A DNA stretch of 64,000 nt from a virus (IMGVR_UViG_2531839524_000004); one strand, 5' to 3'. Counted from the stretch's first letter, positions 44,899 to 49,895 are shown. The notes: generated from the letters alone by a model not told the origin. Made by a program: numbers and translations.

Positions 44899-44930
44899 GG
44901 TGGGGGATATCCCCACCTTCTCTTTGATTT
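44899..44930 (+). terminator. rho-independent terminator
   Basis: GGTGGGGGATATCCCCACC hairpin followed by TTCTCTTTGATTT. Confidence 0.65.
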
Positions 44931-44999: not shown

Positions 45000-46142
45000 A
45001 TGTCATATTCAACGTTCCGTTTGGGTGCTAATGATGCAACCAAAGAGCCTATGTTCCTCGGACAATCTGTCAACGTGGCACGTTACGATCAGCAAAAATA
45101 CCGTGATTTTGAAAAGTTGATTGAACGTCAATTGTCTTTCTTCTGGCGGCCGGAAGAAGTTGATATTTCGAGCGATCGTATCGACTTCAACACGAAGCTG
45201 CGGGACCACGAACGTCACATTTTTCTGAGCAATCTCCGTTATCAAACGTTACTCGATTCAGTTCAGGGACGTAGTCCAAATGCAACGCTGCTGCCGCTTA
45301 TCTCTATTCCTGAACTGGAAACGTGGGTTGAAACGTGGTCTTTCTCTGAGACTATCCATAGCCGCAGCTACACCCACATTATTCGTGGCATGGTGGACGA
45401 TCCGAGCATTGTTTTTGACGGTATTGTTACGGATGAAGAAATCATCAACCGAGCGATCAGTATCTCTGCTGAATATGACAGGCTTTATGGGATGACCTGC
45501 GAGCGCCAGTCGTTAGGTGAGAAGGAATTTGAGCGTCTGTACGTAAATGAATATGGCTGGGAGCCATACCCTTTGCATCGTCAGCTTTTCCGCACGTTGG
45601 TGTCCATTAATGCGCTTGAGGCGATCCGTTTCTACGTAAGTTTTGCATGTACGTTTGCCTTTGGTGAACGGAAGTTGCTTGAGGGTAACACCAAAATTAT
45701 GCGCTTTATTGCCCGTGATGAAGCTCTGCATTGCGAAGGAACTGAACGCATGATCCGCTTCATGCGTACCGGTCGCGAAGGTTTATTGTGGAAAGAGATT
45801 GCTGCTGATGAAGAAAACGTCATTTACGACACCATGAAATCAGTCGCCGAACAAGAAATGAACTGGGCAGACTATCTCTTCAAAGACGGTTCGATGATTG
45901 GTTTAAACGCGGATATTCTCAAAACCTATGTAAAATACCGCACCAATCTGGCTATGAATCGTCTTGGCCTGAAGGCTTTATTTCCAGAAGTTACCACAGA
46001 TCCGCTGGTCTGGATGAACAAGTGGTTGTTAACCGACACACTGCAAATTGCACCACAAGAGGCAGAGCAAAGCACATATCTGGTAGGTCAGATCGATTCT
46101 ACCGTGGATAAGGCTTCTCTAAGCCAGTTTGCAGACCTGTAA
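45000..46142 (+). CDS. nrdB: ribonucleotide reductase class Ia beta subunit
   Basis: 380 aa; near-identity to enterobacterial NrdB in blocks such as FFWRPEEVD and [33 protein letters not shown]. Confidence 0.9.
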
Positions 46143-46219: not shown

Positions 46220-47089
46220 ATGAACTTTACCAAACTGACTGACCCCCTGAAACTTGCCACCGATCGTCTCATTGGATTTAAGCCAGAACCATATGAGTTG
46301 CATGAAGGTCATGGTGTAGCTACTGAAAGTATTTACAAGATGGTCGATCAGTTTCATGAACTCTTCCAGCATCCGAGACGCGTTATGCCGACACCAGAGC
46401 TGCTTCGTCTCCGTGCAAGCCTGATTCATGAAGAAGCTGTAGTGGAAGGTATTCCAGCCGCAATGAATGGGGATATTGAGCAACTGCTGGATGCAATGGC
46501 CGACTTTTTATACGTTGGTGTTGGTACGATGGTCGCCATCAAAGGTGGTATTTCTACCGGCATGACCTATTACACGCAGGAACAGAGCATTGATCGCTTT
46601 ATGCAGACAATTTTTGTGCCCGGTAACACTGTTTTCGATGATATGGCAATGCCATTTCAGGAAGCTCGTGAGGCGTCATATATGCTCGAAGAGCTGGCAG
46701 ATAAACTTGAGAACAAGACTGTTAAGGATTCTGAGCTGATTCAGGAACTGCGCCGTGTCATGAACAAAATCTATGTGGCGTGCATGATGACCTATCGACT
46801 GGCTGATTTCCTCGGTATCAATGTAGTCGAGCTGGTTGGCGAAATTCATCGGTCTAACATGACAAAATTATGGCCTGCTGATGTCGAGGAACGTCGCCAG
46901 GCTGTGGCCAACTGCAAATACGACTCTTCAGACCTGGGATTTCGCCATGCTGATGGTACCGATAAGATGATCGGTTTTCGAATTTCCGATGGAAAGATTC
47001 TGAAGTCTCCAACCTATAGTGATGTCGATTTATCCTCCTTTGTTGAGCAAGCTAAAGCCTCAGCAATGTACGGAATGATCAAAAAATAA
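46220..47089 (+). CDS. putative MazG-like nucleoside triphosphate pyrophosphohydrolase
   Basis: All-alpha candidate with acidic EEAVVEG...DIEQLLDAMADFLY pattern reminiscent of MazG/HisE; weak, by eye. Confidence 0.35.
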   Translation: MNFTKLTDPLKLATDRLIGFKPEPYELHEGHGVATESIYKMVDQFHELFQHPRRVMPTPELLRLRASLIHEEAVVEGIPAAMNGDIEQLLDAMADFLYVGVGTMVAIKGGISTGMTYYTQEQSIDRFMQTIFVPGNTVFDDMAMPFQEAREASYMLEELADKLENKTVKDSELIQELRRVMNKIYVACMMTYRLADFLGINVVELVGEIHRSNMTKLWPADVEERRQAVANCKYDSSDLGFRHADGTDKMIGFRISDGKILKSPTYSDVDLSSFVEQAKASAMYGMIKK

Positions 47090-47156: not shown

Positions 47157-47182
47157 TGGTGGCCTATGGCCACCATTTTTTT
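47157..47182 (+). terminator. rho-independent terminator
   Basis: TGGTGGCC-tat-GGCCACCA followed by TTTTTTT. Confidence 0.75.
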
Positions 47183-47259
47183 ATCTATCTGGCCTTGTTC
47201 CCTCAATAAATGTAAACTCACGCAATGAATAAGTGATTACTTATCTTTGTGAGGTTTTT

Positions 47260-48363
47260 GTGTCACTCCTTTTGAATCGTGAGCATACGAACGGTCAGGT
47301 AACAAACGCATCGTATGCAAAAGTTATTGAGACGGTGCTTAAAAGCGGCGTGCAGGCTGATGATCGCACAGGCACTGGTACTTTAAGCACCTGCTACGTT
47401 CCCTCTTACTACATGCTTACTGGTGGGACTGTGCCGCTTATTTCTGGAAAGGCGGTAAATCTTAAGCCACTGCTTGTCGAACTTGAGTGGTATCTGAAAG
47501 GCACGGGCAACATCCAATTTCTCAAGGATAACGGCGTTAAGATTTGGGATGCATGGGCCGATGAGAATGGCGATTTGGGGCCAGTTTACGGTAAGCAGTG
47601 GCGTCGATGGGAAGATACCCGCATCGTGAGCCATAGTGAATATCTGAGCAAGATCGCTACTTTCCGTGAACGCGGGTACAAAGTCGAGGGATACCTAGGT
47701 ATCAGTGAAGATCGCGTAGTGCTGTCCCGTGAAATCGATCAGCTACAGCGTATTGTCGATACACTGCGCACGAACCCTACCGATCGTCGCATCATGCTTA
47801 ACGCATGGAACGTAGGCGAGCTTGAGGATATGAAACTGCCACCTTGCCACTTTGTCTTCTCTTTGTGGAGTCGTGAGCTTGATTTTGAAACCCGTTTAAC
47901 GATGGCAACTGACATTGGTCTTCAACACAGTCGCCTCGGTTACGAGTCTATCTACACCAAGATGCTATACGATCTGGAGATGGACGGCAGTGTTACTGAA
48001 GCTGAACTGGATGAACTTGGAATCCCCAAACGCATCCTCAACTCCTGCCTCGTACAGCGTAGCGTAGACACTTTTGTTGGTATGCCATTCAATATTGCTG
48101 GCTATGGCATTCTCACTCATTTTCTCGCGAAGATTACGGGTCACATGGCCGGTGCATTTGTGCATTTTGGCTTTGACGTGCATTTGTACAATAACCACAT
48201 GGAAAGTGTGCGTGAGCTAATGCAACGACAGGCTCCAGAGCATTCAGATCCGGTCGTTATATTCCCTAATGAATGGTCTGAGCTGGATGATTTCAAATGG
48301 GACGAGATTCTTATTCTTGGCTATGCCCCTCTACCGTGGATCAAGGTTCCAGTGGCGGTGTGA
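47260..48363 (+). CDS. thyA: thymidylate synthase (ThyA) with two in-frame insertions
   Basis: DRTGTGT, WADENGDLGPVYGKQWR, catalytic LPPCH, MPFNIA motifs; GTG start at 47260 after GAGG RBS; about 100 aa longer than E. coli ThyA. Confidence 0.85.
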   Translation: MSLLLNREHTNGQVTNASYAKVIETVLKSGVQADDRTGTGTLSTCYVPSYYMLTGGTVPLISGKAVNLKPLLVELEWYLKGTGNIQFLKDNGVKIWDAWADENGDLGPVYGKQWRRWEDTRIVSHSEYLSKIATFRERGYKVEGYLGISEDRVVLSREIDQLQRIVDTLRTNPTDRRIMLNAWNVGELEDMKLPPCHFVFSLWSRELDFETRLTMATDIGLQHSRLGYESIYTKMLYDLEMDGSVTEAELDELGIPKRILNSCLVQRSVDTFVGMPFNIAGYGILTHFLAKITGHMAGAFVHFGFDVHLYNNHMESVRELMQRQAPEHSDPVVIFPNEWSELDDFKWDEILILGYAPLPWIKVPVAV

Positions 48364-48364
48364 T

Positions 48365-48778
48365 ATGGCAAGAGGTATGTATGTCTTATGCGAAATTGAA
48401 GGTGTGCTGGCAAATACCAGCCATCGTAAATCTGTATCTGACTCGGATGCAGGCCAATTCATTGCCGGTGATGAACTCATTTTCCCCACCAGCCGTATGT
48501 TGCGTGGTTTTGCTCGCTCAGGGGCTGAAGTGGTGCTTATCAGTAGCCGCTCTGAAACTCTTGAAGCGCCCACTAAACGATGGCTGAAAGATTTTGGTGT
48601 TGATTACGACTGGCTTCATCTCGTACCGAATAGCACTAGTTATGAGAAGCATATTAAGCGCACATTAGCGGAGCATAAAGGCGATCTGCTTATCGCTGCG
48701 CTGGTGCACGATCCTCGACTCCGTGCCGCTTTAGCTGACTCTCATCATAGACCGGTCATCTATGAGGTGAGCAAATGA
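48365..48778 (+). CDS. hypothetical protein
   Basis: 137 aa ORF between thyA and DHFR, translationally coupled. Confidence 0.45.
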   Translation: MARGMYVLCEIEGVLANTSHRKSVSDSDAGQFIAGDELIFPTSRMLRGFARSGAEVVLISSRSETLEAPTKRWLKDFGVDYDWLHLVPNSTSYEKHIKRTLAEHKGDLLIAALVHDPRLRAALADSHHRPVIYEVSK

Positions 48779-49251
48779 AGATGATAGCTGCTGTTGGCCG
48801 TAACTATGAGATCGGCATAGCGAACGAACTGCCCTGGCGTTGTTCTACCGATCTGAAGCTATTTAAGAGACTCACCAAAAACGCCACTGTCGTTATGGGG
48901 CGTAAAACGATGGAAAGTCTCAAACGCCCTCTTCCAGAGAGTCATAACCTCGTTTTGACGCGCTCTCATGGCTTTGTACCAAATGGATTCTACCCTGCTG
49001 GTGTGGATGATGTGTTGCGATTACCAGAGCCTGTGTGGGTGATTGGCGGGGAACAAATTTACTCGCTATTCATGCCGCATGTTGAAGAGATTTGGCTCTC
49101 CCACATCGGCGTTGATGTGCCAAACGCCGATGCATTCTTCCCGGCAAGCATGATGCGTAATTTAGGCTTTGTGCCTGTTGAAACAGCTTATACCCAACGA
49201 GCCAGCGAGGAAGAGCCTGGCTTTTCGCAGATCGTATACAGAAGGTCGTAA
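48775..49251 (+). CDS. folA: dihydrofolate reductase
   Basis: MKMIAAVGRNYEIGIANELPWR N-terminus and overall DHFR-like length/pattern (VMGRKT, VIGGEQIY). Confidence 0.75.
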   Translation: MKMIAAVGRNYEIGIANELPWRCSTDLKLFKRLTKNATVVMGRKTMESLKRPLPESHNLVLTRSHGFVPNGFYPAGVDDVLRLPEPVWVIGGEQIYSLFMPHVEEIWLSHIGVDVPNADAFFPASMMRNLGFVPVETAYTQRASEEEPGFSQIVYRRS

Positions 49252-49895
49252 TGGATTACCGGATTGGGATCACTGGTGCTCAGGGCAGTGGGAAAACAAC
49301 CCTGGCTAAATATATCGACAAACATTACGGAATCCCTTACGTGGATGCTGGTGTCGGAAGTTTGATGAGCCGCCTCGGTGTTCGAGTAGGTGATTCTATG
49401 CCTCTATATGAGCGGCTTCAGATTCAAATGGAAATAGCAAAGCATATAGAGCTACTTACGCGTGGTGTTGAAGGCTTTGTTATCGATCGCACACCTGCTG
49501 ATGTTATGGCCTACACGTTGGATTTGGTCGGCCATACAAATGAAGATCGGTGTATTGAGTTAGCCCTCGATATCGAAAAGTTTTGCCACAAAACTGCTAT
49601 TTCAAACTTTAACGCCATTGCTGGCCTACGCCCGGGGGTCGCTCTCTCAGAGCGAGATTACTTGCGGTCACAACGAGCATCATTAGACCGTCTGTATGTC
49701 GCTCGTATTGATGCGTTGATGTGCGGGGAACTGACAAAAATTCACCTGCATCCGCAAAGGGGAGATCTGCAAACCTTCGTCGTTTCCAACCGGTATCGCA
49801 CAGTTGAAGCAAGAGCCAGATCAGTGATGAGAATGCTAGATAACGCTGTAGAAAAGATAGAAAACCGCTTCTGTGGCCGAGTAACCGTTCATTAG
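49251..49895 (+). CDS. deoxynucleoside monophosphate kinase-like P-loop kinase
   Basis: P-loop GAQGSGKTT at N-terminus; 214 aa; nucleotide-metabolism context. Confidence 0.6.
   Translation: MDYRIGITGAQGSGKTTLAKYIDKHYGIPYVDAGVGSLMSRLGVRVGDSMPLYERLQIQMEIAKHIELLTRGVEGFVIDRTPADVMAYTLDLVGHTNEDRCIELALDIEKFCHKTAISNFNAIAGLRPGVALSERDYLRSQRASLDRLYVARIDALMCGELTKIHLHPQRGDLQTFVVSNRYRTVEARARSVMRMLDNAVEKIENRFCGRVTVH

Follow-up and report, generated by a model that had tools for sequence, protein, structure and literature searches.

The window analyzed here, a 64,000-nt stretch of viral DNA, carries a thymidylate synthase gene (thyA) whose product is clearly larger than the ThyA of Escherichia coli, which raises the question of what the extra residues are and whether they change what the enzyme makes. 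An earlier note had described the product as a host-like thymidylate synthase with two in-frame insertions that could alter substrate or partner specificity.

The DNA itself can be assigned to an SSU5-like phage-plasmid of E. coli because of its matches to phages and because of the plasmid locations of the same gene in E. coli. In the thyA region, identity reaches 99% with Escherichia phage CMS-2020a and 98% with phages Cyrano and PhiR41_1, and Salmonella phage SSU5 shares 77% DNA identity and 86% protein identity with it. The same thyA is present in 230 of 5,426 complete E. coli genomes, at 234 places, and 232 of these places are on plasmids of approximately 108 to 115 kb.

The reading frame (47260 to 48363, plus strand; Table 1) is unbroken, and its product of 367 residues is 100% identical to RefSeq WP_001718076.1, which is annotated “thymidylate synthase.” The annotations of PhiR41_1 and SSU5 place the thyA start at the same codon, which is ATG in PhiR41_1 and TTG in SSU5. 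The excess over E. coli ThyA (264 residues), estimated by the earlier note at about 100 residues, is accounted for by the two inserts, a 17-residue N-terminal extension that was modeled by AF2 with low confidence (pLDDT of 61), and approximately 2 residues near positions 325 to 330.

Table 1. Features of the thyA gene and its neighborhood (positions counted from the first nucleotide of the window)
Feature	Position	Strand	Remarks
nrdB, class Ia ribonucleotide reductase beta subunit	45000..46142	+	Pfam PF00268; RefSeq annotation
MazG-like / PRA-PH nucleotide pyrophosphohydrolase	46220..47089	+	Pfam PF01503; phrog_671
Terminator-like hairpin (8 bp, 6 G-C) and T-run	47157..47182	+	Between MazG-like gene and thyA; consensus match only
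GAGG, Shine-Dalgarno-like	47251..47254	+	5 nt upstream of GTG at 47260; read from sequence
thyA CDS	47260..48363	+	367 aa; GTG start; TAA/TGA stop included
Insert 1	47611..47730	+	Residues 118-157; net +34 aa vs E. coli ThyA
Codon of catalytic C196 (E. coli C146) in LPPCH	47845..47847	+	
Insert 2	47878..48030	+	Residues 207-257; net +51 aa vs E. coli ThyA
HAD / PNKP-phosphatase-like protein	48365..48778	+	137 aa; PF25109 E value 1.5e-4, under family cutoff; phrog_5387, phrog_415
dfrA51, trimethoprim-resistant DHFR	48775..49251	+	NCBIfam NF047324, 335.2 bits vs cutoff of 322; RefSeq name
AAA_28 P-loop protein	49251..49895	+	PF13521; weak phrog_2107 “thymidylate kinase” match

By every testable criterion, the predicted product is a member of the ThyA family. 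Pfam PF00303 matches it with an E value of 5e-79 (265.6 bits against a cutoff of 24.3), the match falling in two stretches, and a phmmer search against the PDB aligned E. coli ThyA as three collinear stretches with the two gaps unaligned. The NCBIfam equivalog for thymidylate synthase, TIGR03284, scored 221.6 bits against a cutoff of 108.35, and phrog_160, “thymidylate synthase,” matched with an E value of 1e-94. Scores for two models of the 264-aa type of ThyA, NF002497 (263.5 bits; cutoff, 327) and NF002499 (239.1 bits; cutoff, 405), were too low because the inserts split the match. An AF2 model built from 83 sequences (mean pLDDT, 95.0; pTM, 0.93) has the ThyA fold, as does E. coli ThyA (PDB 2TSC and 1TJS), with a Foldseek target-normalized TM-score of 0.94. 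The ortholog in the Cyrano record is labeled ThyX; this identity was rejected, as only PF00303 (ThyA) was matched, and the label is a mis-annotation.

The residues with which E. coli ThyA performs catalysis and binds its ligands are all kept in the window protein. The catalytic network comprises C196, H197, E74, and Y110 (E. coli C146, H147, E58, and Y94), and the dUMP phosphate cage comprises R36, R267, S268, R176, and R177 (E. coli R21, R166, S167, R126′, and R127′), of which the R126′ and R127′ positions come from the partner subunit. Folate contacts are made up of I95, W96, W99, D270, G274, and F277 (E. coli I79, W80, W83, D169, G173, and F176). The asparagine that specifies uracil, N278 (E. 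coli N177), is Asn in 158 of 159 insert 2-bearing homologs; the equivalent position is Asp in dCMP-specific relatives. The hydrophobic C terminus, which in ThyA closes the ternary complex, is retained as PVAV, and the counterparts of E. coli K48, L143, Q165, H207, and Y209 are conserved as well. Nearly all of the 159 homologs likewise retain these approximately 20 catalytic and ligand-binding residues. With the full set in place, including the asparagine for uracil and the C terminus, the suggestion that the insertions alter substrate specificity is not supported. The product is apparently an ordinary and fully functional thymidylate synthase, and the conserved interface arginines are consistent with a homodimer that would convert dUMP and methylene-tetrahydrofolate to dTMP and dihydrofolate. 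For this enzyme, dTMP synthesis is inferred, as our literature search found no assay for any enzyme of the insert 2 lineage.

The conserved blocks that had been singled out as near-identical to those of E. coli are so: WADENGDLGPVYGKQWR and PFNIA are identical, and LPPCH corresponds to LAPCH in E. coli. These are universally conserved ThyA motifs. Over aligned columns, the window protein is 44% identical to E. coli ThyA, no closer than to the enzymes of Paenibacillus (48%) and Geobacillus (43%), and its nearest relatives are phage and phage-plasmid proteins. E. coli ThyA lacks both inserts as well as the N-terminal extension. The scores below the cutoffs of the 264-aa type models, NF002497 among them, likewise argue that the gene is not a recent copy of a host gene, and the description “host-like” is therefore not supported.

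The sizes that had been estimated for the two insertions, about 34 residues after QWRRW and about 50 before LxQRS, agree closely with those measured. In the 83-sequence alignment, the segment from W117 to D160 has 42 residues, compared to 8 in the 264-aa ThyAs (+34), and the segment from H197 to Q266 has 68, compared to 17 (+51). Both inserts are absent from the E. coli and T4 enzymes. Structure prediction places them on two hairpins, with pLDDT values of 94 to 98. For insert 1, the short hairpin after QWRxW becomes strands 117 to 124, 141 to 146, and 152 to 159, accompanied by two short helices. For insert 2, three helices (209 to 225, 231 to 242, and 247 to 253; pLDDT, 96 to 98) cap a lengthened beta-hairpin formed by the Cys-bearing strand, 197 to 206, and a strand, 258 to 270, that leads into QRS. 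The second insertion had been placed just after the catalytic cysteine. This is accurate in sequence, since insert 2 follows a 10-residue strand (197 to 206) that itself begins beside C196, but in space the geometry of that strand suggests a separation of approximately 30 Å.

Several observations support the view that these are genuine protein insertions in a continuous frame, as the earlier note proposed: the segments are confidently folded in the model, their GC content and base composition are normal, and they are under purifying selection that is relaxed only about twofold. When the window, SSU5, and a Klebsiella phage-plasmid were compared, pN in the inserts was 0.03 to 0.23 against a pS of 0.58 to 0.96, and pN in the ThyA core was 0.06 to 0.12, with synonymous sites near saturation. 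The ends of insert 2 carry conserved motifs, its middle varies, and R212 and P256 within it are invariant in 47 two-insert homologs. Its charge is only mildly acidic (mean, −2.9) and not clearly different from that of the whole protein, thus giving no hint of nucleic acid binding.

Neither insert matches any Pfam family, and a Pfam scan of 64 insert 2 segments returned only scattered single matches (E values of 0.009 to 0.26) and no family. A profile of 64 diverse insert 2 segments, searched against a collection of 5.8 billion proteins, gave 32 word candidates and 0 matches, the query probably being too short and divergent for the word index. No solved structure covers insert 2, the best query-normalized TM-scores in the PDB, those of insert-less ThyAs, being 0.68 to 0.71. 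In the literature on SSU5 and phage-plasmids, jumbo phages, SPN3US, pHCM2, and TS inserts, we found no description of either insert.

The two inserts are markers of a large phage ThyA lineage and are not peculiar to the SSU5-like element. A protein search revealed a graded series of ThyAs of 324 to 378 residues with inserts at the same two positions. Down to approximately 46% identity, these belong to SSU5-like plasmids of Salmonella, Klebsiella, Enterobacter, Raoultella, Providencia, Morganella, and Xenorhabdus, and a 2.03-Mb replicon of Photobacterium contains a syntenic SSU5-like block. At 37 to 42% identity, homologs lie on contigs of 100 to 356 kb that have many small same-strand open reading frames and phage-type genes. 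A tblastn search of GenBank phages found full-length matches, inserts included, at 37 to 41% identity in SPN3US-like Salmonella phages, many Erwinia jumbo phages, and Cronobacter phage CR5, and direct alignment of the SPN3US and Machina enzymes showed both inserts with shared motifs. Inserts with these motifs were also seen at the same sites in metagenomic jumbo-phage contigs. The two sites correspond to E. coli positions ~99 to 109 and ~151 to 158, and the window protein, with an insert at each, falls within the lineage. Insert 2 begins with (Y/W)(S/T)RELxxxER and ends with LDxxxIPRRxL, and the insert motifs are kept across relatives that are only ~38% identical. The best structural matches in BFVD were models of 201phi2-1-type TS, with query-normalized TM-scores of 0.83 to 0.87.

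A profile of 47 two-insert sequences retrieved 20,281 ThyA-like proteins from 1.84 billion representatives. Among the best 150 of these 20,281, which are representatives at 50% identity, a site 2 insert of at least 20 residues is present in 118 (median, 42; range, 20 to 90) and a site 1 insert of at least 10 residues is present in 119 (median, 33; range, 10 to 272). Both inserts occur in 96 of the same best 150, so that at least 96 clusters at 50% identity share the architecture. Some homologs have either insert alone, so the pair is not necessarily a single unit. Of 234 aligned sequences, 47 have an insert at a third hot spot (E. coli ~83 to 87), and all but one of these also have insert 2; the window protein has no insert there. 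The three hot spots take from 10 to approximately 270 residues. An Ectothiorhodospira protein, P0170, has insert 2 only. In a neighbor-joining tree of ~220 core columns, the best split grouped 104 insert 2 bearers with 17 nonbearers, and the bearers did not come out as a single clean clade; the only clean clade is a 36-member SSU5-like group. Every genomic context examined for insert 2 was that of a phage or phage-plasmid. The relationships found in these searches place the window ThyA in a large phage lineage, as yet without a name, whose defining feature is the pair of inserts, and the gene is not a recent capture from the host.

A cellular enzyme of solved structure shares part of this architecture. 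The ThyA of Burkholderia thailandensis (PDB 3V8H) has an insert at the site of insert 1: a BLASTP alignment with the window protein runs through insert 1 with three small gaps only, and the two segments have equal total length and share RG(Y/F) and (R/K)V(V/L)L..IDQ. This correspondence is visible only by full-length alignment and structure, and a phmmer search of the PDB with insert 1 alone gave no significant match. Insert 1 is therefore an elaboration already known from the structure of a cellular enzyme. However, 3V8H lacks insert 2, having only 2 additional residues at site 2, and carries additional inserts, upstream of GDLG and close to the C terminus, that are absent as a set from the window protein. 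Furthermore, Burkholderia-type ThyAs are only 27 to 28% identical to the window protein overall, and the model of this type, NF010393, scored 140.2 bits against a cutoff of 576, which places the protein outside that subfamily.

Both inserts, at the same sites and with the same end motifs, are found in the TS of SPN3US, Erwinia phage Machina, Cronobacter phage CR5, and Pseudomonas phage 201phi2-1, and MazG-like genes are located nearby. These enzymes are ~37 to 41% identical to the window protein, their insert lengths differ, and some have further inserts that bring them to 457 to 471 residues; they also belong to virulent jumbo phages, whereas the element here is a temperate phage-plasmid. To our knowledge, no two-insert jumbo-phage TS has been characterized biochemically. 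The earlier note had named, as an outcome that would count against it, insertions common to a known ThyA subfamily with normal dTMP synthesis. This was largely borne out in that both inserts are common to a large lineage and insert 1 matches the insert of 3V8H.

Other ThyAs have been elaborated elsewhere. Phage T4 Td (the sequence used was verified against PDB 1TIS) is a phage ThyA with lineage-specific surface inserts that works beside a phage DHFR. Its inserts lie after helix C, before GELGP, and near the C terminus; it lacks both inserts of the window protein, and its site 1 segment is shorter even than that of the E. coli enzyme. The ThyA of Lactobacillus casei (PDB 1LCA) has an insert of ~50 residues, the “small domain,” that leaves the chemistry unchanged; it occupies the third hot spot, which is empty in the window protein.

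The thyA gene lies in a tightly packed, same-strand block with the order nrdA-nrdB-MazG-like-thyA-HAD-like-dfrA51-AAA_28, and this order is the same in SSU5, a Klebsiella phage-plasmid, and a Photobacterium element. The HAD/PNKP-like gene begins 2 nt past the thyA stop, and its end overlaps the start of dfrA51 by 4 nt. The AAA_28 P-loop protein is possibly a nucleotide kinase. In folate chemistry, only methyl transfer oxidizes the folate to dihydrofolate and hence needs DHFR. The presence of a DHFR gene in the same operon thus favors genuine production of dTMP over hydroxymethylation. Experiments have demonstrated that the DfrA51 of SSU5 is active and that it makes E. coli expressing it resistant to trimethoprim; the purified enzyme was also examined by ITC (PMC12217456). 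We saw no genes for a 5-hmdU DNA kinase or for glycosyl- or amino-acyl-transferases in the 41 kb of annotated sequence surrounding thyA.

This neighborhood bears directly on whether the additional residues signal a changed chemistry, in which ThyA would have given rise to a dUMP hydroxymethylase or some other pyrimidine-modifying enzyme and its neighbors would form a pathway replacing thymine in the DNA of the element. The MazG-like, HAD/PNKP-like, and AAA_28 proteins are of accessory kinds known from modified-base pathways, the same gene kinds recur near two-insert ThyAs in jumbo-phage contigs, and ~85 extra residues are without an assigned role. However, the residues specific to ThyA (N278, W96/W99, Y110, D270, and the C-terminal PVAV) are all kept, the thymidylate synthase equivalog is passed, the operon has a functional DHFR that only methyl transfer would need, and the 41 kb surveyed has none of the DNA-modifying genes named above. 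T4 gp42 and MilA, which represent the dCMP, CMP, and dUMP hydroxymethylases, differ from the window protein, which retains the uracil Asn, the ThyA C terminus, and the folate contacts, passes the ThyA equivalog model, and is paired with DHFR; assignment to the dCMP/dUMP hydroxymethylase branch was rejected on these grounds. A changed chemistry is thus very improbable, and we would hardly expect the lineage to make a base other than thymine. An origin of the inserts as functionless remnants of selfish elements (a mini-intein, an in-frame intron, or homing-endonuclease debris) lodged in surface loops has precedent in that group I introns and homing endonucleases are well known for invading TS genes (T4 td, I-TevI, and I-BmoI). 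Some metagenomic ThyAs also have site 1 inserts of 200 to 270 residues, one of which has a weak I-HmuI NUMOD-like match (E value of 8e-4). Inserts of 34 and 51 residues, however, are too short for an intein or intron, match no Pfam family, have normal GC content, and are modeled as integral parts of the folded enzyme. Purifying selection, the retention of motifs among distant relatives, and the ordered state of insert 1 in the crystal structure of a cellular ThyA (3V8H) also make remnants of this kind highly unlikely. Derivation from an intein or intron in particular was rejected, given the lack of any Pfam match, the short lengths, normal GC content, and purifying selection.

The inserts may instead have brought a specific gain of function beyond stability, as a docking platform for a phage dNTP synthesis complex (with DHFR, RNR, or the kinase-like protein) or as a means of evading a host factor. 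In the contexts sampled, insert 2 occurs only in phages and phage-plasmids, and the invariant R212 and P256 and conserved ends around a variable middle follow the pattern of an anchored surface module. In T4, multienzyme dNTP complexes include TS and DHFR, which offers a precedent. Against this, DHFR is not adjacent to the two-insert ThyA in the four jumbo-phage contigs examined, insert 2 is mildly acidic with an undistinctive composition, and the range of 20 to 90 residues among site 2 inserts argues against one conserved partner. On balance, we think such a gain of function unlikely. We are similarly doubtful of its more specific form, in which insert 2, possibly with insert 1, would be a phage-specific adaptor at the tip of the catalytic-strand hairpin that recruits TS into a virus-encoded assembly for dNTP synthesis (with DHFR, RNR, or the kinase-like protein) or shields it from a host factor.

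The reading that we prefer, and consider very likely, is that the gene encodes the canonical ThyA of an SSU5-like phage-plasmid that has its own dTMP supply with DfrA51 and NrdAB and that the inserts are lineage markers and peripheral modules. From the conserved residues and fold, the homodimer would methylate dUMP to dTMP using 5,10-methylene-tetrahydrofolate, with C196 acting as the nucleophile, R36, R267, and S268 together with R176′ and R177′ holding the phosphate, and N278 reading the uracil. Genomic context suggests that the dihydrofolate produced would be rereduced by DfrA51, encoded two genes downstream, and ThyA, DfrA51, and NrdAB together would give the element a dTMP supply for replication that could be used under trimethoprim. 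Each insert lengthens a preexisting ThyA beta-hairpin and provides it with a cap, made up of strands and two short helices for insert 1 and three helices for insert 2. As peripheral structures, ~30 Å along the strand from the cysteine, the inserts would probably leave the chemistry unchanged. The weakest step of this explanation concerns what they do. We suggest only tentatively, because of the conserved anchors around a variable middle and the phage or phage-plasmid nature of every context examined, that they might form a stabilizing or partner-docking surface module.

Few enzymes have been studied as thoroughly as ThyA, yet an insert at site 2 is present in at least 118 clusters at 50% identity, and most of the contexts examined were those of phages. 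In the window protein, this insert is a confidently folded three-helix module with no solved structure, Pfam match, or described role. The function of the gene is expected to be unchanged, and the value of the finding would lie mainly in cataloguing unless a partner or regulatory role emerges. If the adaptor reading were true, it would explain why the module is kept in phage-plasmids and jumbo phages and is mostly absent from cellular ThyAs. Approximately 4% of complete E. coli genomes carry an element with its own thyA-dfrA51 pair. This pair would form a self-contained dTMP cycle in which the DHFR step is trimethoprim resistant, and the extra ThyA bears on the effects that such plasmids may have on antifolate susceptibility and thymidine dependence.

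Genes encoding PRA-PH/MazG-like, HAD_PNKP-like, and AAA_28 proteins lie within a few kilobases of the thyA gene in three jumbo-phage-like metagenomic contigs (L004, L005, and L006) whose ThyA proteins, like that of the window, carry two inserts relative to the Escherichia coli enzyme. These neighbors recur despite the contigs being otherwise unrelated, and a mazG gene is likewise found near the thymidylate synthase gene in the jumbo phages SPN3US and Machina. This suggests that a conserved nucleotide-metabolism gene set travels together with the two-insert ThyA lineage.

Coordinates of features within the operon-like block of the window and of a related block in Photobacterium
Feature	Location	Strand	Basis
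Terminator-like hairpin directly 5' of nrdB	44899-44917	+	8 bp, 6 G-C
Terminator-like hairpin directly 5' of thyA	47157-47182	+	8 bp, 6 G-C, then T-run
DHFR gene, dfrA51	48775-49251	+	NCBIfam DfrA51 score, RefSeq name
SSU5-like block (L011)	Photobacterium ganghwense CP071326.1, 800763-821824		Gene order as in SSU5-like elements

Within the window, the apparent single same-strand block contains the two strong hairpins, which, judged from their sequence, could be attenuators or internal terminators. The start codon of thyA varies between close relatives at one shared position (47260 in the window): the window has GTG, the phage PhiR41_1 has ATG, and both SSU5 and the Klebsiella phage-plasmid have TTG. 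The ortholog in the phage Cyrano (GenBank OV696614.1, 72603 to 73733) is 98% identical and is labeled “ThyX Thymidylate synthase” in its record; this assignment to the flavin-dependent family was rejected, as the protein is a ThyA (PF00303). Two genes 3' of thyA, the DHFR scores 335 bits against an NCBIfam cutoff of 322 for DfrA51, a trimethoprim-resistant DHFR of which the SSU5 allele has been shown to confer trimethoprim resistance (PMC12217456). The neighboring thyA is not mentioned in that paper.

Larger elaborations are found among metagenomic ThyA representatives, seven of which (P0127, P0135, P0154, P0159, P0186, P0225, and P0259) have inserts of 200 to 272 aa at the position of the first insert (E. 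coli positions ~101 to 108), for total lengths of up to 530 to 590 aa. A Pfam scan of the large inserts in the first four of these returned no matches; the smaller insert at this site in P0141 has a weak I-HmuI NUMOD-like match (E = 8e-4). These inserts may be entire domains added to ThyA, or they may derive from an endonuclease whose sequence is translated in frame. Five other representatives (P0122, P0137, P0140, P0213, and P0255) have an N-terminal extension of 133 to 145 residues, which in P0122, the one scanned, has no Pfam match. In addition to its extension, P0122 carries the two inserts.

The closely related RefSeq plasmid pWP4-S18-ESBL-07_2 (NZ_AP022089.1) has, beside its phage genes, copies of apbC and metG, a frameshifted rnhA, and genes for RecA, a RepB initiator, and a TerB-family protein. 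In the Vibrionaceae species P. ganghwense, the SSU5-like block lies within a 2.03-Mb replicon and runs in the order SbcCD-like, nrdA, nrdB, PRA-PH, two-insert thyA, HAD_PNKP, DHFR, and AAA_28, followed by an RNase_T exonuclease, a methylase, and RNase H. Integrated copies of the SSU5-like module may therefore occur as well, and its range may extend beyond the Enterobacterales.
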